DNA from: an uncultured virus (IMG/VR IMGVR_UViG_3300010338_000756)
Lineage: Duplodnaviria > Heunggongvirae > Uroviricota > Caudoviricetes
DNA: 20,000 nucleotides
Strand: one strand, 5' to 3'
IMG/VR virus record: IMGVR_UViG_3300010338_000756
In this document: positions 3,553 through 18,044 of the stretch, piece after piece
Position numbering within the stretch: position 1 is the first letter of the stretch
Layout: the number at the start of each line of letters is the position of its first letter
Translations under genes and position numbers: made by a program
Notes under the pieces: generated by a model
The model's database searches: none
The model's input: only the letters and a program-made list of their open reading frames with translations
Told to the model about the DNA's origin: nothing

Positions 3553-4020
3553 CTACCCCGAGCCGTACATCCAGCGCAACGCATCGGCCGGATCGAACAG
3601 CCGTTCACGCACCGTGCAGACCACAGCCGGAGGATCGCACGGCGGGCCCTCGCGCACCTCTAGCCGTCGCACCTGCCTGTCGTTGCGGATCAGGCGCCCG
3701 TTCGCGAGCGCGTCCAGAAAGGGCTTCACCCTGTTGTCGAGGTCCGAGATTCGCGCGAATCTCGGACTGAACTGCACCAGCATCTCCACCTCGACCGGAT
3801 TCGGGGAATCATAGACCGCCCGGGCTTCCCACAGTTGCTCGCGCACGGCCCGCTGGTAGCTCTTCCCGGGCCGATCCACGTAGGTCACGGAGACGTGTCG
3901 TCCCTGCTTTCTGGAGTAGATGACTGCGGTTCGCCAATATTCGTTCGCGGAGGGAGGCATCGGGAAGGCGACTCGCTCAAGTAGCGTGCGATGCGTGCCC
4001 GTACCAGCATCGAGGCCCAC
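3553..4020 (-). CDS. rusA: RusA-family Holliday junction resolvase (start uncertain: GTG 4020 or ATG 3960)
   Basis: FPMPPSANEYWR, SDLDNRVKPFLDAL and NDRQV match the RusA PPSxN / DxDNxxKxxxD / DDxQ(I/V) motifs. Confidence 0.88.
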   Translation of the reverse strand: MGLDAGTGTHRTLLERVAFPMPPSANEYWRTAVIYSRKQGRHVSVTYVDRPGKSYQRAVREQLWEARAVYDSPNPVEVEMLVQFSPRFARISDLDNRVKPFLDALANGRLIRNDRQVRRLEVREGPPCDPPAVVCTVRERLFDPADALRWMYGSG

Positions 4021-4439
4021 TGCCACGCCAGCGCCCACGGGCTGTACCCCAAGATGTCCTCGACCCTCGTCAGGTGATCCACTTGATCGCCGAAGGTCTG
4101 CTCCCACGTCACCGCACCAATCCCGCTGTCGATCCCGAAGCCCCCCACGTGATAGTGCGCGTGCAGCGGTATTTGCAGGCCCGGATTCTGCCTCTGACCG
4201 ATGCCGGGCACCCCGAACGGGGTCGCCGCCATGGACCCGCCCCGACAGTGATGCAGCGTCACAGGCCGCCGTCCACTGACCACGCAGCGCAGCGTTCGGA
4301 GTCTTGCTTCGTGTTCGGCGACCGAACTTGGCAAATGCACCCATTCGGCGATCCTCGCACAGTCCGGGTTCTCGCAGAACTCGCCGCGCGTGAACGGACA
4401 GGCGTCCGGTTCCATGCAGCGGCAGGTGAGCGCGGTCAC
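3885..4439 (-). CDS. Ref/DUF968-like HNH-type nuclease with a Cys-rich N-terminus
   Basis: CVVSG...TLHHCRGG...GIGQRQ...QIPLHAHYH...WEQTFGDQ follows the Ref/DUF968 pattern. GTGA overlap with the upstream ORF. Confidence 0.65.
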   Translation of the reverse strand: MTALTCRCMEPDACPFTRGEFCENPDCARIAEWVHLPSSVAEHEARLRTLRCVVSGRRPVTLHHCRGGSMAATPFGVPGIGQRQNPGLQIPLHAHYHVGGFGIDSGIGAVTWEQTFGDQVDHLTRVEDILGYSPWALAWQWASMLVRARIARYLSESPSRCLPPRTNIGEPQSSTPESRDDTSP

Positions 4440-4723
4440 TGCACTCTGGCCGGCATGTCCACGATATGCCCCAACCGACTCCCGAGTTCGGAGCGTTCGG
4501 CCGGGCGCAGGTCGCGCTTGAGGTATTCGTCCAGCATCTCGCGCACCTTGCGGTTCGCGGCCACGTCACGCGGGTGATCGTAGGCGTACTGGTAGGCGTC
4601 CACCACTCGCCGCGCGAGCTTGTCCCCGCGCATCGCCAGCGTGCCGATCTCCCGCCCGTAGAGGCGATAGACTTCGAGCACCTGCTCCCACGGCCACGAC
4701 AGGATCGTATTCGGCTCGCTCAC
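4436..4723 (-). CDS. Hypothetical protein (95 aa)
   Basis: GAGGGGG RBS before the GTG. Coupled to its neighbours. Confidence 0.7.
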   Translation of the reverse strand: MSEPNTILSWPWEQVLEVYRLYGREIGTLAMRGDKLARRVVDAYQYAYDHPRDVAANRKVREMLDEYLKRDLRPAERSELGSRLGHIVDMPARVQ

Positions 4724-8997: not shown

Positions 8998-9980
8998 TGC
9001 GATCCAGCAAGATGATGTTCTTGAGCGATTCGCACCGCCCTGCGCCGGTTGAATTCGCGCACGCCTTGCGCCGCTTCTCCGAGGATCAGAGCCAGTCGGA
9101 CGAACAGCGGGTGTTCTGGTCCGCGCTGGCCGCCAGCGCCGCTCGCGCGCAGGTCTTCGATTTCGGGCGGATGCCCGACGCGGTTGTGCGGTCTGAGGCT
9201 ATCCGCGGCGCACAATTCTGGTCGGCCGGCTTCCTGCGCCTGCCGTTCCCTTCGTCCCTGTTCTGGTACACGATTGACCTTGATCGAGACAGCGACCAGC
9301 CGCTCCGAGAGCACCACATCGACAAGTACCGTTACGCGACGCTCTGCGTCGATGTCGCCGCGGTCGGCGGATTCCCGCAGCTACCGGAGAACAAGCCCTC
9401 GGTTCTCGCGGTCGATTTCATGGTGGTCCCGCCCGAGTTTCGCGTCACTCAATCGGCCCGCACGACGATGGCTGTGAGTTGCGCCGGACATATCTGCGAC
9501 TGCGACGAGGGCCGATACAGGGGCGTCGCCTACTACTCCTGCGTCGACTCGAAGCACAACAGCACGATGCTCGGGTCGCTCGCGGACGGCATGATCAGCA
9601 TGTGCATGATCCTGTCCACCCGCGGGGTGCCCACGAGGGTCGCAGAGCCGCCTGTCCGGCTGAACGCCAAGCGTGCTCGCTCAGGCAAGCCGCCGCTGGT
9701 GCGCGTCACGCACGTCGATACCGGGCTGTACTACCGCGCGCTCGCCGAGGCGGATCGGCCTCGCGGCACGCACAAGAGCCCGGTCCCGCATCTGCGCCGC
9801 GGCCACATTCGCCGGCTGCCGTCTGGCGATACGTGGGTGCGCGACGCCGTGGTCAACGCACGCTCGTCCGCCGAGGTCGAGGCGCGCGACCACTATGACG
9901 TGTCTGCGTTGACACAGGTCGCCACACGGACTTACAGTGCAACCACGGCACAACACGAGGTACACCATGAGCAGGAATGA
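8994..9980 (+). CDS. Hypothetical phage protein with a C-terminal SPxPHxRRGHxR motif
   Basis: 328 aa ORF. The RLNAKRARSGKPPL...HKSPVPHLRRGHIRRL...WVRDAVVN motif recurs in phage proteins of unknown function. Confidence 0.75.
   Translation: MMRSSKMMFLSDSHRPAPVEFAHALRRFSEDQSQSDEQRVFWSALAASAARAQVFDFGRMPDAVVRSEAIRGAQFWSAGFLRLPFPSSLFWYTIDLDRDSDQPLREHHIDKYRYATLCVDVAAVGGFPQLPENKPSVLAVDFMVVPPEFRVTQSARTTMAVSCAGHICDCDEGRYRGVAYYSCVDSKHNSTMLGSLADGMISMCMILSTRGVPTRVAEPPVRLNAKRARSGKPPLVRVTHVDTGLYYRALAEADRPRGTHKSPVPHLRRGHIRRLPSGDTWVRDAVVNARSSAEVEARDHYDVSALTQVATRTYSATTAQHEVHHEQE
9909..9938 (+). promoter_or_regulatory. Sigma70-like promoter, family B (TTGACA-N18-TACAGT), for the recT operon
   Basis: Consensus -35 box, followed by ACGGCACAACAC, GAGG and the ATG at 9967. 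Confidence 0.7.
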
Positions 9981-10989
9981 TGATCGGCGCCCCGAGGCGC
10001 CGTCCGAAGCGGCACTGTCCAAGCAAATTGCGGTTGCCGCCCCCGCGTTTCGATCCGCCAGTGACGCGCTCGCGCGATCCGGCGAACTGCCTCCGCTGCA
10101 ATGGGAATCGGAGAGCCTGTTCGCCCTGCGTCGCATCATGGACGACCCGAACTTGCAAGCCGCTGCGCCTGACAGTCTCGTCGATGCGCTCACGACGGTC
10201 GGCAGCTTGGGCCTGACGCTGAACCCGGTGAAGCAGCACGCGGCGCTGCTGGCCCGCTATGACCGGAAGTCCGGGGCATATCAGGCGAGCGTCATGGTCA
10301 TGTATCGCGGGCTGCTGTGGCTCGCGCGCCGCGCCGGCGTCCACGACATCGTGGCAGACGTGGTGTACTCGGCCGACCGCTTCTCGCTCAAGCGCACGCA
10401 CGAGGGCGATCATTTCGAGCACGAGATCGCGTTCGCGACGCCCCGGGACGGGGAGCAGAATAAGTTCGTCGGCTGCTACGTCGCCGCCACGATGCCGGGC
10501 AGCACGCTGCCCAAGGTCGAATGGGTGCCGGCCGAGGACATCTACCGTATCCGAGCGCAGTCCGATTCCTACATCGACCGCAGGACCGGCGAGGTCCGGC
10601 AGAACTCGGGGTGGGTGCGCTGGTTCGATGAATTCGCGAAGAAGGCCGCCATCAAGCGCGCCCAAAAGCGATGGGAGAGCGACAAGGCCGATTCGCCCGC
10701 GTGGACGCACTTGCAGCGCGCCGTGGACATCGACAACCGCACCGAGAAAGTGGTCGAGGATGACAACGTGATCGAGGGCACGGTCATCCCGCCTGAGCCG
10801 TCGCTGTCGCCCGAACAGGTCGCCGAGATCACGGAATACGCTGGCCCGACACTCGTGCGCAAGATCGTCGCGGCCTACGATGTCACCAAGCTGGACGAGA
10901 TTCCGGCCAGCAAGTACGCCGAGATCAAGCAGCGAGTCGCCGCTGCAAAACAGATGATGGAGCAGCGTCGCCGGAGCGCCGCCCAATGA
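9967..10989 (+). CDS. recT: RecT/Red-beta-family ssDNA annealing protein
   Basis: SLGLTLNP, MYRGLLWLARRAG, ADVVYSADRF, VGCYVAA, IYRIRAQS and WVRWFDEFAKKAAIKRAQKRW. GAGG RBS before 9967. Confidence 0.9.
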   Translation: MSRNDDRRPEAPSEAALSKQIAVAAPAFRSASDALARSGELPPLQWESESLFALRRIMDDPNLQAAAPDSLVDALTTVGSLGLTLNPVKQHAALLARYDRKSGAYQASVMVMYRGLLWLARRAGVHDIVADVVYSADRFSLKRTHEGDHFEHEIAFATPRDGEQNKFVGCYVAATMPGSTLPKVEWVPAEDIYRIRAQSDSYIDRRTGEVRQNSGWVRWFDEFAKKAAIKRAQKRWESDKADSPAWTHLQRAVDIDNRTEKVVEDDNVIEGTVIPPEPSLSPEQVAEITEYAGPTLVRKIVAAYDVTKLDEIPASKYAEIKQRVAAAKQMMEQRRRSAAQ

Positions 10990-11645
10990 GCCGCGCCGTA
11001 TTCGATGATTCGCCGCAGGGATCGCCGGGCTGGCACCGCGCCCGCCGCGGCAAGATCACGGGCACCCGGATCAAGACCATCATGCACGGCACCCCGAAGG
11101 GCTGGAACACGCTGCTCGACACCCTGCGGCACGAGATCGAGCACCCGGACGCCGAGGTCGCCGATGCGCCGTTTGTGTCCGCGGACGTGGAACACGGTCG
11201 CAAGTACGAGCCCGTGGCTCGCGCCAATGCTGAGCTGCAACTGTGCGAGGACTTCGAGCTGGTCGGATTCGCGCAGCATCCCGACTTTCCGTTCCTCGGA
11301 GTGTCGTCGGACTTCATGGCGCTGGACCGCACCGTGAACGGCGAGATCAAGTGCCCGCGCGACATCCGCAACTTCAACGCCGTGCGCTTCTCGCAACGCC
11401 TGCCGGACGAATACTACCCGCAGGTGCAGCTACAGATGTTCGTGCATGGCGTGGATCGCACGATCTTCGTCTGCCATCACCCGGACGCGGGCGACTGGCG
11501 AATCAATACCATCGTGCTGAACGTCTACAGCGACGCCGAATATCAGGCCGCGATGCTGGATCGCTGCCAAGCGTTCATGGCCGCCGTGCGAGGCGCCGCG
11601 CCCATGATCACGGACGACACGCCCGGCGTGCCGCTCATTTTCTGA
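10986..11645 (+). CDS. YqaJ / lambda-exonuclease-family nuclease (copy 1)
   Basis: QGSPGWHRARRGKITGT, HGRKYEPVAR, GVSSD, EIKCP and YYPQVQLQM. Confidence 0.92.
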   Translation: MSRAVFDDSPQGSPGWHRARRGKITGTRIKTIMHGTPKGWNTLLDTLRHEIEHPDAEVADAPFVSADVEHGRKYEPVARANAELQLCEDFELVGFAQHPDFPFLGVSSDFMALDRTVNGEIKCPRDIRNFNAVRFSQRLPDEYYPQVQLQMFVHGVDRTIFVCHHPDAGDWRINTIVLNVYSDAEYQAAMLDRCQAFMAAVRGAAPMITDDTPGVPLIF

Positions 11646-11658
11646 AGGAAGGACTGCG

Positions 11659-12429
11659 ATGAATACCGAGAATACCGAAGCTGCTGATTTCACCCCGATG
11701 TCGCCGACCGCCATGCTGGCGGCGTCCGATACCATTTCCATCGCCCCGGCCTTCGAGATCGCCCGCTCGCTGGCGCCGATGAAGACCGCCGCGGATTCGC
11801 TGCTGGAACAGGCCAAGCGCGCCGAGGTTCACGATCAGGAATCCGCGGACAAGGCGTCACTGTTCCTGAGCGTGGTCAAGAACAAGGCCGACCGACTCGA
11901 AAGCTACCGGCGCTCGGTCAAGAAGCCCGTAGACGATTACGCTGCATTCATCCAAAGCCTGTTCCGGCCCATCTCGGACTGCCTGTCCGATGCGAAGAAG
12001 CTCGTGTCGTCCAAGGCGAGCGACTACCTCGTCGAGCAGGAGCGCAAGTTGCGCGAGGAACGCGAGGCCGAACGTCGCCGGCAGGAAGAGGCCGCGCTGA
12101 AGATCGCCGCCGAGGCCGAGGCCGCTGGCGATGCGGCCGGCGCCGAGATGATCCTCGATGCCAGTCTCAAGCAGAAGCCCGAGCCCAAGTCGGCGACCCC
12201 GCCGCAGGTCACGAACAGTCTCGGCGGCAAGCTCGGCCTGCGCCGGACGTGGAAGGGCACTGTCGCGAGCCCCGAGACCGTACTGCGCGCCATCCTCGAT
12301 GGCCGCCTGCCGTGGTCCCTGATCTCGTGGAATCAGGCCGCACTGAATGAGGTCGCCCGCGGGATCGGGCAGGAAGGCGTGTTCGTCGGCGTGCGCTGCG
12401 ATCACGTCGCGTCGGCATCCGTTCGCTGA
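11659..12429 (+). CDS. Phage coiled-coil protein in the recombination module (DUF1351/Gp157-like architecture, family uncertain)
   Basis: Long helical N-terminal region (RRSVKKPVDD...F), charged linker, and C-terminal RRTWKGTV...NQAALNEVAR...GVR. Confidence 0.7.
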   Translation: MNTENTEAADFTPMSPTAMLAASDTISIAPAFEIARSLAPMKTAADSLLEQAKRAEVHDQESADKASLFLSVVKNKADRLESYRRSVKKPVDDYAAFIQSLFRPISDCLSDAKKLVSSKASDYLVEQERKLREEREAERRRQEEAALKIAAEAEAAGDAAGAEMILDASLKQKPEPKSATPPQVTNSLGGKLGLRRTWKGTVASPETVLRAILDGRLPWSLISWNQAALNEVARGIGQEGVFVGVRCDHVASASVR

Positions 12430-12451
12430 ATTGTTCTGAGAGGATCGAATC

Positions 12452-12904
12452 ATGTCACGCGGAGTCAACAAGGTCATTCTGGTCGGTCACGTCGGTCGCG
12501 ACCCCGAGGTTCGGGTTCTCGCCGCATCCGGTTCCAAGGTCGCCGATTTCTCCCTCGCCGCCACTGAGCAGTGGAAGACGCGCGACGGCGAGAAGAAGGA
12601 ACGCACGGAATGGGTGCGGATCGCGGCATTCGGCACGCTTGCCGAGATCGTCGAGAAGTACGTCACGAAGGGCACGCAACTGTTCTGCTGCGGACGGCTG
12701 CGCACCGAGAAGTGGCAGGACAAGGGCGGTAATGACCGCTACACCACCAAGGTCTATCTCGATGAGATGACGCTGCTCGGCGGCGGGAACCGCGCCGACC
12801 GCCCGCCGCGCGACGATGACCGTCACCCCCCGGTTGTCACGCATGGCGCCAACGCGCCGGACGAGGACGCCGAGGACGACTTCGATGACGATGTGCCGTT
12901 CTGA
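12452..12904 (+). CDS. ssb: Single-stranded DNA-binding protein
   Basis: RGVNKVILVGHVGRDPEVR, ERTEW, GRLRTEKWQDK and the acidic tail DFDDDVPF. Confidence 0.97.
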   Translation: MSRGVNKVILVGHVGRDPEVRVLAASGSKVADFSLAATEQWKTRDGEKKERTEWVRIAAFGTLAEIVEKYVTKGTQLFCCGRLRTEKWQDKGGNDRYTTKVYLDEMTLLGGGNRADRPPRDDDRHPPVVTHGANAPDEDAEDDFDDDVPF

Positions 12905-13173
12905 TGGAGACGCCCATGGCCTACCGCAAACAGTACGCCGACCCGGACATCCGGATGATCTCGACTGACGACACGCCGCCGCCGCCGCGTGAGAAGTGGC
13001 CATTCCGGCTGCTCGACGTGGGTCAGGGATTCGAGACGACCGAGCTTGGCTACCACATGGCGCTGCGCTCGGCCGCGACCCGCTACGGCAAGAAGCTGCG
13101 CCGCAAGTTCTCGGTGCGCAAGATGCTCAACGTCGAGAATGAGCTGGTGATCGCAGTGTTTCGAGAGCGATGA
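12904..13173 (+). CDS. Small basic putative DNA-binding protein
   Basis: KWPFRLLDVGQGF...LRSAATRYGKKLRRKFSVRK matches a pattern common in small phage proteins (KYPF..meVGDSF). Confidence 0.7.
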   Translation: METPMAYRKQYADPDIRMISTDDTPPPPREKWPFRLLDVGQGFETTELGYHMALRSAATRYGKKLRRKFSVRKMLNVENELVIAVFRER

Positions 13174-14171
13174 TTCTCATGGCGGCTACCAAGATCATCA
13201 TCAATGTCATCGATTCGAGCGATGCGGCGAGTGAGACGATTCACGGCGCGACGCTTTTTCCGGACGCGCAGTATGCCGTGCTCTACGACCCGTCGCCTGC
13301 GGAAGTGCGGTATCCGGTGCGCGTAGGTAACGGCGAGCGCGCGTGGCGCTCATTCCGCTACGTCTCCCCGCTCGCAGTCCGTGGTCGTGCCCCCACGTAC
13401 CTGCACAGCACCGTCACCGTGGACCCGGTTCGCCTGATGGACGAGATTTACGCCCATCGCGACCATCGCCCCATCGTGTACATTCACCCCGATGCGCCGC
13501 TCGTGATGCCGCCGCTGCCGAGCCACTACGAGCGCCTGCGTCGCTCGCGTGAGCCCGCGGCATACAGACCGACCGCGGCCTCGATCTTCCAGTGGAAGGA
13601 CATGCTCGCTCACGAAGTCCTGCCCCACGATAACCACTTGTTCGGCCGGGGCGAGCGTGCGCGCTTCGAGTTCTATCGCGCCGCGCTGGACGGACTGAGC
13701 AACGTCGTGCGACTGAGCACCCTGTCGTCCATGAAGAGCTATTCCCTGCGGCTGTCCAGCGTGTACGAGATGGCTGACCATCCGTCCGGCCCTGACAGTG
13801 GAATGCGAGGGGCGCACAAGGTTCTGAGCACACTGCCGGATCGAGAACTGAGCGACGCTACCGCGTACTACGTCACCCGCCTGCGCTCGACAGCGAAGAC
13901 CGACGTGCGCGACTTCGCACACAAGGTCGCGGCGATGGCGTCCGATGACCTGTGCGGCGACGGCAACACGGCCATGCAGTTGCCGGGGAGAATGGTGCTC
14001 GTGCTGACCGGCGTGGACGAAGTGACCGATGACCTGTTCATCTTCATGGACACCATCGAGGCCCACCCGTTCTTCAAGAAGCTCAGATGGCCCGATGAGA
14101 CGTACATTCAGGACACAAGTGGTGTGATCCGCGTGGTCCGCTCGTTCCGCTATGGCACCGCCGAAGCGTAA
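13170..14171 (+). CDS. Degenerate adenylosuccinate synthetase (PurA/PurZ)-like protein lacking catalytic motifs
   Basis: Colinear similarity to PurA: AQYAVLY~AKYVVRY, NGER~NGEK, VTVDPVRLMDEI~VVLSPAALMKEM, APLVM~CPLIL, YYVTR, LTGVDEV~LTKLDVL. No GDEGKG or GHT motif. The ORF is solid; the fold call is by eye. Confidence 0.55.
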   Translation: MILMAATKIIINVIDSSDAASETIHGATLFPDAQYAVLYDPSPAEVRYPVRVGNGERAWRSFRYVSPLAVRGRAPTYLHSTVTVDPVRLMDEIYAHRDHRPIVYIHPDAPLVMPPLPSHYERLRRSREPAAYRPTAASIFQWKDMLAHEVLPHDNHLFGRGERARFEFYRAALDGLSNVVRLSTLSSMKSYSLRLSSVYEMADHPSGPDSGMRGAHKVLSTLPDRELSDATAYYVTRLRSTAKTDVRDFAHKVAAMASDDLCGDGNTAMQLPGRMVLVLTGVDEVTDDLFIFMDTIEAHPFFKKLRWPDETYIQDTSGVIRVVRSFRYGTAEA

Positions 14172-14286
14172 CCAGCGGCGCACACCGCCGCGCCCGCCGC
14201 CGCTGATCCGCTCGGTTGAGGGCAGGGTCATGCTGATCCTGCTCGGCGCATGGATCGCGTTCCTCGTGTGGGAGATCATTCGATAG
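14152..14286 (+). CDS. Small single-TM peptide, 44 aa (MAPPKRNQRRTPPRPPPLIRSVEGRVMLILLGAWIAFLVWEIIR); not in the ORF track
   Basis: ATG at 14152 (alternative 14230) to TAG at 14284-14286. Basic/Pro-rich N-terminus and a hydrophobic helix. Confidence 0.45.
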   Translation: MAPPKRNQRRTPPRPPPLIRSVEGRVMLILLGAWIAFLVWEIIR

Positions 14287-14289
14287 CTG

Positions 14290-14318
14290 TTGCCTTCTGT
14301 TTCGCGGTGTGATACGGT
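14290..14318 (+). promoter_or_regulatory. Promoter, family A (TTGCCT-N17-TACGGT, extended TGTG)
   Basis: Homologous to the promoters at 1769 and 8670. Followed by a CACTAGGAGA leader/RBS that also precedes DUF932. Confidence 0.62.
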
Positions 14319-14355
14319 CACGCATAGCTTCTCGATAGGCACTAGGAGACGCACC

Positions 14356-14580
14356 ATGCACCTCACCGATGCTGTCGCGATCATGTACGCCACGCGCGAC
14401 CGCGACCTGAACCCGCCCGCTGGCATGACCGAATCCGAGGAACGCTACGAACAGCGCCAGTTCCAGCTCTACGTCGAGCAGGAACGCGAGCGTCTGGTGC
14501 GCGAGTTCCTGCGCGCTTACGATGACATGTTCGTTGACTTCTGCCTCGACAAGTTCGAGGCTGAGGAAGGAGGTGCGTGA
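14356..14580 (+). CDS. Small acidic protein, paralogue 1 of 3 (74 aa)
   Basis: AGGAG RBS. Shares an F-x2-Y-x6-RL-x3-F-x7-F-x2-F-x4-F/Y pattern with the ORFs at 15193 and 15872. Confidence 0.78.
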   Translation: MHLTDAVAIMYATRDRDLNPPAGMTESEERYEQRQFQLYVEQERERLVREFLRAYDDMFVDFCLDKFEAEEGGA

Positions 14581-14819
14581 TGGCCCGTCCGAGCTACCGC
14601 GAAGCCGTGAAGTGGCTTTCCAACTTCCGCGATTCCAAGATCGACCGCGACACGAATGCGGACCTGTCTGACGTTCCGTTCGTCGCCGGCCAGCTCGTCA
14701 CGATGCTGGTCGCCGACCTGTGGGGCCAGTCGGCGGAACGAGTCGCCAACGACGTGCTGCGCTACGAAGGAACAGGACGTGACGACCCCGTTGCGACGGT
14801 TAGGAGCTACGGCGAATGA
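14577..14819 (+). CDS. Hypothetical phage protein (80 aa)
   Basis: GGAGG RBS and GTGATG coupling. SYREAVKWL...LVADLWG...VANDVLR. Confidence 0.75.
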   Translation: MMARPSYREAVKWLSNFRDSKIDRDTNADLSDVPFVAGQLVTMLVADLWGQSAERVANDVLRYEGTGRDDPVATVRSYGE

Positions 14820-15196
14820 CTGACTCGCTCGGCCACTTCGTGGCTCTTGAGGTCGCGCGCTGCGTCGATGAGACGAGAGGCTCGCCTGATTCCGCCAGCG
14901 GCGACTACAGCAAGGCCGCGAGCAGCGGCGATGGCAGCAAGGCCGCGAGCAGCGGCGACTACAGCAAGGCCACGAGCAGCGGCGACGGCAGCACGGCCGC
15001 TAGCAGCGGCGCGGACACGATCTCCATGGTCGCGGGGCTACGTGGCCGCGCCAGTTCCGGTAAAAATGGCTGCATCGCTCTCTGCTGGCACGACGGTAAG
15101 CGCAATCGCATCGTCGTCGGCTACGTCGGCGAGGACGGCATCAAGGCCGACACCTGGTATCGCGTCGAAGCCGGGAAACTCGTGGAGGCCGCATGA
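14816..15196 (+). CDS. Phage protein with 9-aa (SGDxSKAAS) repeats and a C-terminal VGEDGIKADTWY domain; lacks the usual N-terminal domain
   Basis: The repeat array plus GYVGEDGIKADTWYRVEAGKLVE is typical of a widespread phage repeat-protein family. Confidence 0.78.
   Translation: MTDSLGHFVALEVARCVDETRGSPDSASGDYSKAASSGDGSKAASSGDYSKATSSGDGSTAASSGADTISMVAGLRGRASSGKNGCIALCWHDGKRNRIVVGYVGEDGIKADTWYRVEAGKLVEAA
14897..15004 (+). repeat. Four in-frame 27-bp tandem repeats
   Basis: agcggcgactacagcaaggccgcgagc and variants, alternating Tyr and Gly forms. Confidence 0.92.
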
Positions 15197-15573
15197 ACGC
15201 TATCTGCAACGAGCCGATCAGCAACCGCGACCCGCGCTATGCCGGCGCCATGGCCGAACTCGAAACCGACTATGCCCGCGAGGATTTTCTCGCCTACCAG
15301 CGCGCGAACTTCATGCGGCTCGCGAAGCTGTTCTTGATCGACCGCGACTGCGAGTTTGAAGCGTTTTCATGGCAGCAATACGCGGAGGCGCGGAGGTGCG
15401 CATACCTGGCCGGCGTGAGCATCGAACAGTCGCGCGGCTGGATGAATCGTGCGCGTGACGCGAAGCTGCACGGCGACTCGCCCGAGACGATCTGCACACT
15501 GGTGAAGATTGCACGCGCGCGTCGCCGCGACTATCGCGCGCATCTCGGACTTGCTCTCGGAGAGACATCATGA
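15193..15573 (+). CDS. Hypothetical protein, paralogue 2 of 3, with a C-terminal extension
   Basis: GGAGG RBS and ATGA coupling. NRDPRYAG...DFLAYQR...FSWQQY. Confidence 0.78.
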   Translation: MNAICNEPISNRDPRYAGAMAELETDYAREDFLAYQRANFMRLAKLFLIDRDCEFEAFSWQQYAEARRCAYLAGVSIEQSRGWMNRARDAKLHGDSPETICTLVKIARARRRDYRAHLGLALGETS

Positions 15574-15875
15574 GCGCTTACCACGACGCGTGTCTCGACA
15601 TCGCGCGCGATCCCGATCGCATGAGCCGGCACGGCCGATTCATCGGCGCGCTGACAGACGACGAAATCGGAATCTACTGGCGCGATCCCGACAACGCGCG
15701 CGACAGCAGCGAGCCGGTTGCCGAAATCTGCATCGAAGCCGGCATCAGCGAGTGGGATTTCGCACAGCGGCCGGATGCGCTGCACGAATGGCGCACAGCA
15801 CTGAGACGCTACGCAGTTGTGCAGATGGTGCGCGACATCGAAGTGGCAGCGACCGACGAATTGAGCGCGGCATGA
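15570..15875 (+). CDS. Hypothetical acidic protein (101 aa)
   Basis: GGAG RBS. ATGA coupling at both ends. Confidence 0.72.
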   Translation: MSAYHDACLDIARDPDRMSRHGRFIGALTDDEIGIYWRDPDNARDSSEPVAEICIEAGISEWDFAQRPDALHEWRTALRRYAVVQMVRDIEVAATDELSAA

Positions 15876-16069
15876 TCGACTGCATCACCAACCGCGATCC
15901 GCGCTGGGCCGGAATCATGGCGCAGATCGAGTCGGACGACGACCCGCGCGCTGATTTTCTCGCGTGGCAGCGCCGGGAATACGTGCGGCTCGCGCAGTTA
16001 TTCGTAGTCGAGCGCTTCGAGGAATTCGAACAGTTCAGTTGGCAGATGTACGCGAAGGCGAAGGAGTAG
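15872..16069 (+). CDS. Hypothetical protein, paralogue 3 of 3 (65 aa)
   Basis: The ATG at 15872 overlaps the upstream stop. NRDPRWAG...DFLAWQR...FSWQMY. Confidence 0.78.
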   Translation: MIDCITNRDPRWAGIMAQIESDDDPRADFLAWQRREYVRLAQLFVVERFEEFEQFSWQMYAKAKE

Positions 16070-16072
16070 ACG

Positions 16073-16300
16073 ATGACAATGGTGGAATCAACGAGCGAAG
16101 CGCGCACCGTGAACAATACGATGCGGCATCAGTATCGCGTCCTTGACGAACTCGAAAAGGCGCAGATGCAAGCCATCAAAGACAAGGGGCTTGAACTGCA
16201 CGAGCTGATCGAATCTATCGGTCAGTCGCGTGAACTCTCTCTCGCGAAGACGAAGACGGAAGAAGCGGTCATGTGGGCCGTAAAACACATCGCGCGATAA
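16073..16300 (+). CDS. Acb2/Tad1-like helical-hairpin anti-defence (signal-sponge) protein
   Basis: YRVLDELEKAQMQAIKDKG resembles Acb2 YRDLSQEEIDMMNRVKELG. SRELSLAKTKTEEAVMWAVKHIA matches the second helix of the Acb2/Tad1 hairpin. AAGGAG RBS. Confidence 0.75.
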   Translation: MTMVESTSEARTVNNTMRHQYRVLDELEKAQMQAIKDKGLELHELIESIGQSRELSLAKTKTEEAVMWAVKHIAR

Positions 16301-16459
16301 CCAGTCATGGCCCCAACCAGTGAGACCGCTCCCGCCCTGCAAGCCAGCACAGATTACGCAGCAACATGCTGGACAGGCATCTGTCTCCGCAGGTGGCGCA
16401 CACGCCTCACACGGGTACCCCTCTCTGCGCGGGGCCTCCATTTCGGTAAGGAATGAATC

Positions 16460-16651
16460 ATGCGCATCCTGAACTTCTGGCACCGCCTGCACACCGAACT
16501 CGCCGCCCTGCAAACGGCATGGCGCGAGGACCGCGAACGCGCGCAGCAGATCAAGTACCGGCGCGCGCTGCGGAAGCGCCGCGTCGTGCTGCCGGCGCCG
16601 AGGCCGGATGCCGTCGCCGGCAACTGGTACGGCGACAGGAAGGCGCAGTAA
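16460..16651 (+). CDS. Small basic hypothetical protein (63 aa)
   Basis: TAAGGA RBS and GC3-rich codons. Fills the gap before erf. Confidence 0.65.
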   Translation: MRILNFWHRLHTELAALQTAWREDRERAQQIKYRRALRKRRVVLPAPRPDAVAGNWYGDRKAQ

Positions 16652-16668
16652 TCCCAATGGAGACTCAC

Positions 16669-17406
16669 ATGGCGAAATCAACCCAGGTTGTCGCGGCCGA
16701 GCCGCCGACCGAATCCGGAAACGTTCTGCAGATCATCAGCCGCGCGGCAGCCGACCCGAGCGTGGACATCGAGAAGCTGGAACGGCTGCTCGCGATGCAG
16801 GAGCGCATCGTCGCCAAGCACGCCGAGAGCGACTTCAACGCGGCGCTGAACGCTGCGCAGACCGAGATCGGCACGATTTCAGCCGACGCCGAGAACAGCC
16901 AGACGCGCAGCCGCTATGCGACCTACGCGAAGCTCGACAAGGTGCTGCGCCCGATCTACACGCGGCACGGCTTCTCGCTCAGTTTCGACGAAACCGACTC
17001 GCCGAAGCCGGACCATATCCGTGTTCTGGCGATCCTAGCGCATCGTGGCGGTCACAGTCACACGTACCAGAAGGACATGCCGGCTGACGGCAAGGGCGCG
17101 AAGGGCGGCGACGTCATGACCAAGACGCACGCCGCGGGCGCCGCTGCCAGCTACGGCATGCGATACCTGCTGAAAGGCATCTTCAACGTCGCAATCGGCG
17201 AGGAGGATACCGATGGCAATGAACCGCGCGACGAGCCGCGCATCAGCGAGGACCAGGCCGCGACGTTGCAGGCGCTGATGGAGGAAGTCGGCGCGGACAA
17301 AGCGCGATTCTTCGCCTACCTCAAGATCGGCGCACTCAAGGAAATCCACGCGCGCAACTATTCGAGCATCGTGAAGCTGCTCGAATCGAAGCGGAGACGG
17401 GCATGA
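16669..17406 (+). CDS. erf: ERF-family ssDNA annealing protein
   Basis: DIEKLERLLAMQER, FNAALNAAQ, SRYATY..L...RPIYTRHGFSLSF, HRGGHS and GAAASYGMRYLL..IFNVAIGEEDTDG. GGAG before the ATG at 16669. Confidence 0.9.
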   Translation: MAKSTQVVAAEPPTESGNVLQIISRAAADPSVDIEKLERLLAMQERIVAKHAESDFNAALNAAQTEIGTISADAENSQTRSRYATYAKLDKVLRPIYTRHGFSLSFDETDSPKPDHIRVLAILAHRGGHSHTYQKDMPADGKGAKGGDVMTKTHAAGAAASYGMRYLLKGIFNVAIGEEDTDGNEPRDEPRISEDQAATLQALMEEVGADKARFFAYLKIGALKEIHARNYSSIVKLLESKRRRA

Positions 17407-18044
17407 GCGCGCACGACGTCACCCAGGGAACTGACGATTGGCAGGCGCTGCGCCTCGGCAAGGTGACGGCCTCGCGCATCGCGGACCTCATGGCACGCAC
17501 GCGCAACGGTTGGGGAACGTCGCGAGCCAACTACATGGCCGAGCTGGTGGCCGAGCGGCTGACCGGCGTGAAGACCGAGGGGTTTTCGAACGCGGCTATC
17601 AAGTGGGGCTTGGAAATGGAGCCGCAGGCGCGCGACGCCTACGCCTTCTTTGCCGATGTCGATGTCGCTCAGATCGGTTTCATCGACCACCCGCGAATCG
17701 CGATGACCGGCGCATCGCCGGACGGACTCGTAGGCGACGCCGGGCTGGTCGAAATCAAGTGCCCGCTCACTGCCACGCACATCGAGACTCTGCTGACCGC
17801 CTCGGTGCGGGAGAAATACCTGTATCAGATGCAGTGGCAGATGGCCTGCACCGGCCGGCAGTGGTGCGACTTCGTCAGCTACGACCCGCGCATGCCGGAA
17901 CGCATGCGCTATTTCTGCCAGCGCGTGCCGCGAGACGACCGCCTGATCGCGACCTTGGAGCGCGAGGTCTCGGAATTCCTTCGAGAGGTAGCAGATAAGG
18001 TCGCCTCCCTGCAATCGAAGTATCCAGAGAGGTTGGCCGCATGA
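17403..18044 (+). CDS. YqaJ / lambda-exonuclease-family nuclease (copy 2)
   Basis: QGTDDWQALRLGKVTAS, WGLEMEPQAR, GASPDGLV, EIKCP, YLYQMQWQM and WCDFVSYDPR. Confidence 0.95.
   Translation: MSAHDVTQGTDDWQALRLGKVTASRIADLMARTRNGWGTSRANYMAELVAERLTGVKTEGFSNAAIKWGLEMEPQARDAYAFFADVDVAQIGFIDHPRIAMTGASPDGLVGDAGLVEIKCPLTATHIETLLTASVREKYLYQMQWQMACTGRQWCDFVSYDPRMPERMRYFCQRVPRDDRLIATLEREVSEFLREVADKVASLQSKYPERLAA

Follow-up and report, generated by a model that had tools for sequence, protein, structure and literature searches.

The 20,000-nucleotide stretch of DNA analysed here (the window), which derives from an uncultured virus, contains a 333-codon open reading frame that raises the question of whether a phage gene of the PurA/PurZ family can persist after its catalytic residues have disappeared. 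The original prediction regarded the product as a PurA/PurZ-fold protein with selectively lost catalytic motifs. The reading favoured here, to which we assign a probability of about 45%, is that the target is an early gene for a non-enzyme and a strongly diverged remnant of a gene of the PurZ/PurA type from a phage. Its descent from PurZ/PurA, as well as any retained fold and any function, is what we infer from the comparisons described below.

Coding status and genomic context

The target is a real gene but an orphan, and it comes from an uncultured wastewater phage. It and the gene immediately preceding it are arranged as follows:

12904–13173, plus strand: upstream gene of 89 aa, phrog_10287 (unknown function), with a TGA stop that runs into the target ATG
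13170–14171, plus strand: target ORF of 333 aa, a sequence orphan, defined by translation and codon-position GC

Translation of the target is open throughout all 333 codons. The GC content at codon positions 1, 2 and 3 (0.63/0.46/0.81) resembles that of the adjoining genes, with the gene-like GC3 of 0.81 spanning the whole ORF, and the start codon overlaps the preceding stop as ATGA (13170–13173). The codon-position GC and this overlap uphold the earlier description of the ORF as intact, coding in appearance and translationally coupled. An antisense ORF at 13350–14426 is longer than the target (358 aa), but it was dismissed as a gene because of its codon-position GC pattern (0.75/0.49/0.67) and its lack of family matches. 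The upstream gene has a single phage homologue, gp47 of Rhodobacter phage RcHartney (E 6e-3), which has no adjoining PurA-like gene.

The predicted location in a recombination operon is likewise borne out, with genes for RecT, a YqaJ exonuclease, a second exonuclease and SSB on the 5' side of the target, and Acb2-like, Erf, YqaJ, NinB and Ref-like genes on the 3' side. The Acb2/Tad1-hairpin gene (E 4e-20) lies 1.9 kb downstream. In the favoured reading, the target would be a genuine early gene of a high-GC phage of sludge-type metagenomes, probably expressed within this long plus-strand operon through translational coupling to the small upstream gene.

Distribution and sequence variation

A word-index search found the target on three contigs, the longest of 65,732 bases, and matched no other sequence; a copy with 100% identity is present in a viral record (G001). 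The phage recurs at about 100% identity in metagenome runs of four other studies, where pieces of the target are nearly unchanged and the contigs show no indel or stop within it. Only two variants are listed, M90L and D91E, both conservative and both from one X4 contig (depth 5.3), with one further, unlisted difference in an X3 contig. No RNA run is listed among the datasets that carry the target.

Homologues were sought on a large scale. Among 1.84 billion representatives, phmmer retrieved only the target itself, and tblastn and megablast left it unmatched in 50,697 phage records. An IMG/VR locus search with the target and two neighbours returned only the same contig, and hence supplies no synteny evidence. 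Given the lack of homologues and only two listed variant positions, a dN/dS estimate is impossible.

Similarity to PurA and PurZ

Colinear similarity to PurA/PurZ, judged by profile comparisons, appears to exceed chance only at about residues 30–114. The protein can accordingly be divided into the following parts:

13257–13511, plus strand: residues 30–114, the sole stretch with above-chance PurA/PurZ likeness (hhalign, hmmsearch)
13512–14171, plus strand: residues 115–333 and the stop codon, with no detectable similarity to PurA/PurZ or another family

In the hhalign comparison, residues 30–114 correspond to about residues 30–109 of Escherichia coli PurA, and the core of the segment reads TVDPVRLMDEI ... 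VYIHPDAPLVMP. Against a mixed PurA/PurZ profile, the target ranked first of 62 (P 4.4e-4, probability 33%), a P value of about 4e-4 that applies to a preselected family and, by our estimate, would lose significance across some 20,000 families. With our own PurA/PurZ profile, hmmsearch --max gave the target 5.5 bits and first rank among 202 sequences including shuffles, aligning residues 76–114 with profile positions 70–112. The same profile placed it first among 100 window ORFs and first among 24 genes, and made it the top non-member among 310 natural ORFs, whereas true PurA/PurZ members (10, one left out of training) scored 232–510 bits. A global profile alignment of our own gave z 4.7 for residues 1–118, a value reached by none of 100 shuffles.

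Two phage profiles that share no sequences yielded concordant results. A profile of the S-2L PurZ clade (27 sequences; P 7.6e-4) and one built from eight further PurA/PurZ-like phage proteins (P 1.5e-3) aligned target residues 82–114 and 62–114, respectively, with none of 60 shuffles scoring higher in either case. A cellular-only PurA profile aligned residues 70–115 at a level that is not significant (P 0.026, 3 of 60 shuffles higher), and the target is not in the six best HMM scores listed for that profile. Every profile, the cellular one included, nevertheless puts the segment at the corresponding position. What would still be recognisable in the putative relic is one buried segment (about residues 60–114), predicted to consist of a strand, a helix with D-x-x-L-x-x-E-I and a strand with H-x-x-A-x-x-V.

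The remaining two-thirds of the protein behave differently. For residues 115–333, hhalign scored 15.2 compared with up to 19.9 for shuffles (n=40), and the global profile alignment of the C-terminal part gave z -0.03, with 48 of 100 shuffles as high. At 89 conserved PurZ columns the target had 21 identities, where shuffles averaged 22.5 and 67 of 100 had at least 21. All peptide strings quoted in the original prediction are present in the translation, but those assigned as C-terminal PurA motifs (SGMRGA, YYVTR, LVLTGVDEV and the terminal YG) stand at chance in these three tests. The proposed colinearity with adenylosuccinate synthetase thus holds for about residues 30–114 in the profile tests and fails for the C-terminal motifs.

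Catalytic motifs

The place at which the phosphate-binding loop of PurA would be expected is the N-terminal end of the protein:

13170–13256, plus strand: residues 1–29, putative place of the PurA P-loop, reading KIIINVIDSSDAASE

We infer this placement, because residues 1–29 lie outside the statistically supported alignment. The loop motif G-[DS]-[ET]-G-K-G is absent; the target has D-S-S-D-A-A-S-E, with neither Gly nor Lys, and the three invariant G/K/G columns are unmatched. A PurZ-type Ser within an intact loop is also absent, since the serines of D-S-S-D are present and the G-K-G that should follow is missing. The N-A-G-H-T motif is similarly lacking: mafft --add puts Q and Y into the invariant G and H columns; alignment A1 sets the motif against A-E-V-R-Y-P or a gap; and hhalign places the catalytic-His motif within target residues 30–60, where no His was found. 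At the IMP/dGMP loop, G-[ST]-T..G.G, and at E-G-x-Q-G, all invariant columns show gaps or mismatches; the alignment of this region does not rise above chance, so that neither motif has a colinear counterpart.

The predicted loss of the P-loop (GKG) and GHT motifs is therefore confirmed by translation and alignments. Its selectivity is not: of 24 family-invariant columns, taken from our own PurA/PurZ alignment, the target keeps nine, which is the chance level (9 of 40 shuffles keep at least nine), and the loss is not confined to catalytic motifs because similarity is gone everywhere outside one segment of 50–85 residues. The target sequence lacks every catalytic signature, which rules out a functional synthetase for adenylosuccinate or 2-aminoadenylosuccinate. 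If it has an activity, this would be binding, to protein or nucleic acid, rather than catalysis.

Library searches and structure prediction

Searches of the whole protein and of fragments found no family in Pfam at E <= 10 (hmmscan, 24,736 models) and no match in NCBIfam or PDB sequences (E <= 10) or in PHROGs (E <= 1). The proposed search against PF00709 accordingly gave no significant family match in the library. BLASTP against E. coli PurA (b4177) produced only scattered, non-colinear fragments, with a best E of 2.3. On the other hand, the ten best feature matches of ESM Atlas that carry a family are all PF00709, at a feature score of 0.78 that, per the tool, lies in the range reached by shuffled proteins. 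The Atlas's own model (pLDDT 0.53) aligns 231 residues (span 6–325) to a 421 aa PurA with a TM of 0.52; residues 125–333 alone did not retrieve PF00709/PurA.

AF2 models of the target had a pLDDT of 39 unseeded and 42 when seeded with PurZ, and in the seeded model only the 10-residue blocks covering residues 81–120 reached a mean pLDDT of 60–83. One feature recurs in both runs:

13857–14153, plus strand: residues 230–328, a predicted beta-alpha-beta-alpha-beta-beta unit (AF2, low confidence)

Its matches are weak and generic, namely IF3-C/Alba/Pop-like folds and methylase C-domains (Foldseek E >= 0.087; VIA Z <= 6.3, below the tool's stated background of typically 7–8). For the models as a whole, the top rows of the fold searches are methyltransferases, IF3-C, Alba and Pop6/7 (TM about 0.18 by query, or Z <= 6.3), and no PurA/PurZ appears among the listed Foldseek and VIA-align matches. 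Since models of this quality are too poor, these searches speak neither for nor against any fold, and the AlphaFold and Foldseek check suggested earlier yielded no more than low-pLDDT models with no PurA among the matches listed. The original prediction had made the PurA/PurZ fold depend on a significant profile or structural match, and on that measure the idea is close to refuted. What stands in its favour is the sub-threshold N-terminal signal and the ESM Atlas lead.

Origin and possible roles

The N-terminal likeness could quite possibly, at somewhat less than even odds, be chance or convergence on a common strand-helix-strand arrangement over 50–85 residues, in which case the target would be an unrelated orphan phage protein, an early accessory factor whose C-terminal unit perhaps binds nucleic acid, encoded among genes that otherwise serve recombination and counter-defence. 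Such an origin agrees with the emptiness of every unbiased sequence search, the restriction of the signal to one short segment with a non-significant cellular profile, the chance-level retention of invariant columns, the failure of PurZ-seeded AF2 to take the PurA/PurZ fold and the recurrence of the C-terminal unit with its weak IF3-C/Alba/Pop-like matches. However, those fold matches lie under the tool background (Z 6.3 versus 7–8), PF00709, the family backed by the targeted tests, is also the one that the unbiased ESM Atlas search picks out, and the target ranks first in every phage-profile control, at an aligned position that is identical across three disjoint profiles. These considerations argue for descent from a PurZ/PurA-type gene, as do the restriction of confident residues in the PurZ-seeded AF2 model to 81–120 and a genomic setting like that of genuine phage purZ genes, although the original prediction, hhalign and the language model may not be independent lines, as the same short motif may drive all three.

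If descent is accepted, the present state of the gene may be read in other ways. A decaying former purZ/purA gene, functionless now and with a frame just not yet broken, would account for the loss of nearly all family-conserved residues and for the lack of Z-genome partner genes within the 46 kb visible, and conservation of the target cannot be demonstrated because no homologue was found. We nevertheless consider decay unlikely: 333 codons are open, with a GC3 of 0.81 along the full length and a coupled start, the contigs of four studies carry neither indel nor stop, with conservative changes at the two listed positions (M90L, D91E), and divergence this extreme with no frameshift at all is hard to square with neutrality. 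Equally improbable is a repurposed PurA/PurZ-fold pseudo-enzyme directed against the host, whether as a poison of PurA dimers, a sponge for nucleotide signals or a decoy for a defence sensor. The Acb2/Tad1-hairpin gene downstream, the run of small genes of unknown function, as is usual for counter-defence regions, and the N-terminal PurZ-like trace are in keeping with it, as is the dimeric state of PurA and PurZ, in which an Arg from the partner subunit enters the active site (PMC8342488). Against it, AF2, Foldseek and VIA-align give no support for the PurA/PurZ fold; none of the residues that contact nucleotides can be recognised in the target, which speaks against a sponge; and past residue 114, where the alignment is no better than random, the dimer interface cannot be located. 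The more specific idea that the phage kept the PurZ/PurA ligase shell, stripped of catalytic and nucleotide-binding residues, as a binding protein of early infection, for example one that caps host PurA dimers or distracts a defence sensor watching purine enzymes, is a similarly long shot.

If the favoured descent from a PurZ/PurA-type gene is correct, the target would represent an enzyme of phage nucleotide metabolism that has become a non-catalytic protein, and would hint that lineages can drop 2-aminoadenine DNA and reuse the gene. No such conversion was found in the literature searched, as far as its available text extends. Should the ligase-shell reading hold, it would be the first pseudo-enzyme from the Z-base pathway. 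The practical value is small at present because the evidence consists of one local similarity below threshold and the protein has no relatives, and the target is best treated as a flagged orphan in a counter-defence-rich early operon.

Comparison with PurA, PurZ and Z-genome genes

Companion genes of a Z-genome pathway, namely datZ (HD dATPase) and mazZ (MazG-like) or dutZ/dmtZ, were not detected. No match to PF00709, MazG or HD was found in 29 window ORFs, in 20 ORFs of the structural module or in the viral record with the identical copy; the search for purZ/datZ/mazZ called for by the original prediction therefore came up empty in the roughly 46 kb visible out of a contig that extends to as much as 65.7 kb. 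The 29 window ORFs also contain no vWA domain. Theresita gp52, considered as a truncated precedent, was set aside because it is a full-length protein of 418 aa scoring 260 bits.

Compared with PurA (EC 6.3.4.4; E. coli b4177), the target shares the segment alignment at about residues 30–109 and the ESM Atlas TM of 0.52, but it is about 100 residues shorter and lacks all catalytic motifs. In PurZ (S-2L, phiVC8; PF00709), a Ser replaces the catalytic Asp of PurA in an otherwise intact loop (PMC12884076), whereas the target has no GSTGKG loop, NAGHT, GST..G.G loop or EGCQG, and also lacks the TTVT aspartate loop and the FLNF.Q base pocket, the residue roles being those given in PMC8342488. The likeness to PurZ lies in the alignment of about residues 60–114 to the equivalent PurZ segment, in its being a phage gene with a product of 333 aa, against 359–442 aa in the phage proteins compared, and in its surroundings: genuine phage purZ genes adjoin those for SSB, DNA polymerase or annealing proteins, and the target sits in a similar module.

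Genomic setting and occurrence

The 333 aa target ORF belongs to a tightly packed plus-strand operon starting about 7.1 kb into the window, which has a G+C content of 62-70% and carries phage genes.

Genes of the window that frame the target (position, strand, product)
Minus strand: small terminase, RusA-domain protein and helicase
9937-10989, plus: RecT, in the recombination operon
Between RecT and SSB, plus: YqaJ exonuclease, then a second exonuclease (phrog_10477)
12452-12904, plus: SSB
Directly upstream of the target, plus: 89 aa phrog_10287 protein
13170-14171, plus: target
14290-15875, plus, downstream of the target: five small ORFs of no assigned function
16073-16300, plus: Acb2/Tad1-hairpin protein, 75 aa (PF24729, E 4e-20)
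3' of the Acb2-like gene, plus, in this order: Erf, second YqaJ exonuclease, HTH protein, NinB, Ref-like nuclease, SNF2-type helicase

The Acb2-like protein belongs to a family whose annotation is that of sponges of cyclic-nucleotide immune signals, and together with the five small ORFs its gene may form a counter-defence stretch. The recombination toolkit is unusually redundant, with two annealing-protein/exonuclease pairs in one operon, both complete and from different families (RecT and YqaJ, 9937-11645; Erf and YqaJ, 16453-18044), accompanied by the phrog_10477 exonuclease as a third, SSB, NinB and the Ref-like RecA-dependent nuclease, and RusA on the other strand. In the 338 aa ORF at 3553-4569 (minus strand) the RusA domain is confined to residues 203-306, so that either the N-terminal extension is long or the true start lies further downstream. 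The helicase shares at most 37% identity with that of the nearest cultured phages.

An identical copy of the target is carried by G001, a 41.5 kb IMG/VR viral record that continues for 26.4 kb beyond the window on its upstream side, into a structural module (large terminase, portal, major head and ejection proteins). The phage is widespread and varies remarkably little: several studies of activated sludge, sludge, biogas fermenters and rivers have yielded metagenomes with near-identical pieces of it (window 11600-15900). One contig of the metagenome run X4 skips 208 bases inside the SSB gene (12502-12709) and may represent a variant or the SSB of another organism. One contig of a second run, X3, lacks 27 bases at 14975, an in-frame loss of nine codons from a phrog_27197-like protein (ORF 14816-15196, plus strand), and also has A>C at 14913, which recurs in one X4 contig.

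The target as a gene

As far as its sequence can tell, the target is a gene. Its GC content by codon position (0.63/0.46/0.81) is constant along the ORF and follows the pattern of RecT, SSB and other neighbours, and its start codon overlaps the TGA of the upstream gene (ATGA). Short contigs from four other studies (sludge, biogas and river metagenomes) cover parts of it and show no indels and hardly any changes, the differences listed being M90L and D91E; an assembly artefact is thereby excluded. These observations bear out the original prediction of an intact, translationally coupled ORF. In the flanks, no candidate promoter or terminator exceeded the level expected from shuffling. The 118-base gap 3' of the target holds an 18-codon ORF (14230-14286, plus strand) for a strongly hydrophobic peptide, which may be a chance ORF. 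A longer antisense ORF (13350-14426, minus strand, 358 aa) was rejected as the antisense shadow of a GC-rich gene, given its GC pattern (0.75/0.49/0.67) and its lack of a family match in Pfam and NCBIfam.

Similarity to PurA and PurZ

The target had been described as colinear with adenylosuccinate synthetase (PurA) and its phage relative PurZ, a claim that holds for an N-terminal part and fails for residues 115-333. BLASTP against E. coli PurA (annotated K-12 record) found no more than scattered pieces that were not colinear (best E 2.3). With a first family profile, built from E. coli PurA, eight phage PurA/PurZ-like proteins and 30 of 120 S-2L-like PurZ proteins, hmmsearch --max placed the target first among 202 sequences (itself, 200 shuffles and its reverse) at 5.5 bits, the best control reaching 2.3, with residues 76-114 aligned to profile positions 70-112. 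By hhalign, residues 30-114 were aligned to E. coli PurA 30-109 (P 4.4e-4, probability 33%), and the target ranked first of 62 (34.5; reversed 27.2, shuffles at most 22.3). Real sequences gave the same order: the target led 100 window ORFs (next 0.7 bits), led 24 genes by hhalign (next 19.5), and, of 310 natural ORFs taken from all fetched loci, scored highest among those outside the family.

Phage profiles reproduced the signal, but with cellular PurA it did not reach significance. Profiles of 27 S-2L-clade PurZ proteins (residues 82-114, P 7.6e-4) and of the eight other phage proteins (residues 62-114, P 1.5e-3) were each matched as highly by none of 60 shuffles, whereas with 78 proteobacterial PurA proteins (residues 70-115, P 0.026) three of 60 shuffles exceeded the target, and the list of the six best HMM scores did not include it. 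End-to-end profile alignment of residues 1-118 gave z 4.7 (0/100 shuffles).

Similarity in the C-terminal two-thirds is at chance in every test. Residues 115-333 scored 15.2 by hhalign against up to 19.9 for 40 shuffles, with a non-colinear best alignment, and global alignment of residues 119-333 gave z -0.03 (48/100 shuffles). MAFFT did yield a colinear chain with PurZ (target first: SMKSYSLRL/SMRTYPIRV, SGP..DS, TLPDR/KLPRR, GVDEV...FIFM/GVDEV...FLNF). Shuffles match it equally well, with 21 identities at 89 conserved columns for the target, a shuffle mean of 22.5 and 67 of 100 shuffles at 21 or more, so the motifs YYVTR, LVLTGVDEV and terminal YG, once read as homologous, carry no weight.

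The absence of catalytic motifs was correctly predicted. Among 24 columns at least 95% conserved in a 39-sequence family alignment, the target agrees with nine, as do 9 of 40 shuffles; the P-loop G, K and G, the G-H of the His motif, the G-S/T...G loop and the Q-G of EGxQG are all unmatched. The PurZ-type enzyme is described in PMC8342488 as a dimer in which an Arg from the partner subunit lies at the substrate. The target cannot function as a working PurA/PurZ enzyme.

Structure models and search for relatives

ESM Atlas contains the target, and its feature search places clusters of PF00709, the family profile, best, at a score (0.78) that the tool grades as a lead only; its model (pLDDT 0.53) aligns 231 residues (span 6-325) to a 421 aa PurA at TM 0.52. 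Residues 125-333 alone retrieved no PF00709 cluster (best TM 0.38, unrelated folds). AlphaFold2 reached pLDDT 39 without an alignment and 42 when seeded with 27 PurZ sequences, and even this biased run did not adopt the PurZ fold; mean values of 60-83 were confined to 10-residue blocks over residues 81-120, the segment similar to PurZ in sequence. No PurA or PurZ was listed by Foldseek, run on both models, or by VIA-align, run on the first; the models (pLDDT 39-42) are too poor to speak for or against any fold. The matches listed were methyltransferases and IF3-C, Alba and Pop6/7-like domains, with a query-based TM near 0.18 or, in VIA-align, a Z no higher than 6.3, which is under the background stated for VIA-align. 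Both runs predicted a beta-alpha-beta-alpha-beta-beta order for residues 230-328.

The target is without relatives. It matched only itself in phmmer against 1.84 billion cluster representatives and in a word-index search, nothing by tblastn and megablast in 50,697 phage records, and only G001 when IMG/VR was scanned for patterns of the target and two neighbouring genes. The PF00709 search advised earlier was negative, the whole target having no match in Pfam, NCBIfam or PDB sequences (E <= 10) or PHROGs (E <= 1); residues 1-125 had none in Pfam, NCBIfam or PDB sequences, and residues 25-125 and 201-333 none in Pfam.

Competing explanations

We tentatively favour, at a probability of roughly 45%, descent from a phage PurZ/PurA-type gene of which one structural segment is still recognisable, the same segment being found at the equivalent position in three disjoint profiles. 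It is almost as likely that the target is an unrelated orphan whose PurA/PurZ-like motif arose by chance or convergence. The P values refer to a pre-chosen family and, by estimate, would not be significant over some 20,000 families; ten true members, including Theresita gp52 from outside the training set, scored 232-510 bits in the 310-ORF test, so the target, at 5.5, lies far outside recognisable membership.

Smaller odds are given to neutral decay, which the lost motifs might suggest and the intact frame does not; the metagenome contigs hold too few changes for selection to be judged. Similar odds apply to the host-directed roles proposed originally, namely nucleotide sponge, poison of PurA dimers or decoy for a defence sensor, the sponge being the least likely because no nucleotide-contacting residue of PurA/PurZ is recognisably kept. 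Nearness to the Acb2-like gene makes a counter-defence role conceivable but counts as no evidence for it. The papers listed for PurZ, adenylosuccinate synthetase and phage included no account of a catalytically dead PurA/PurZ-like protein from a phage, which is not proof of absence; the match listed for adenylosuccinate synthetase pseudoenzymes was unrelated, and the words inactive and truncated occur in the main text of neither PMC12884076 nor bioRxiv 10.1101/2025.10.22.683976.

Comparison with purZ-bearing phages

The search for purZ, datZ or mazZ elsewhere in the genome, as suggested earlier, was negative in the visible part (about 46 kb of up to 65.7 kb): none was found among 29 window ORFs and 20 structural-module ORFs, and G001 has no PF00709, MazG or HD match. 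Nor did the window ORFs include a neighbour with a vWA domain. In Burkholderia phage Bm1 and cyanophage S-2L, purZ stands beside an SSB, DNA polymerase or annealing-protein gene and is followed by datZ, and in S-2L also by mazZ. The position of the target is similar to that of purZ in these phages, whereas its neighbours are different.
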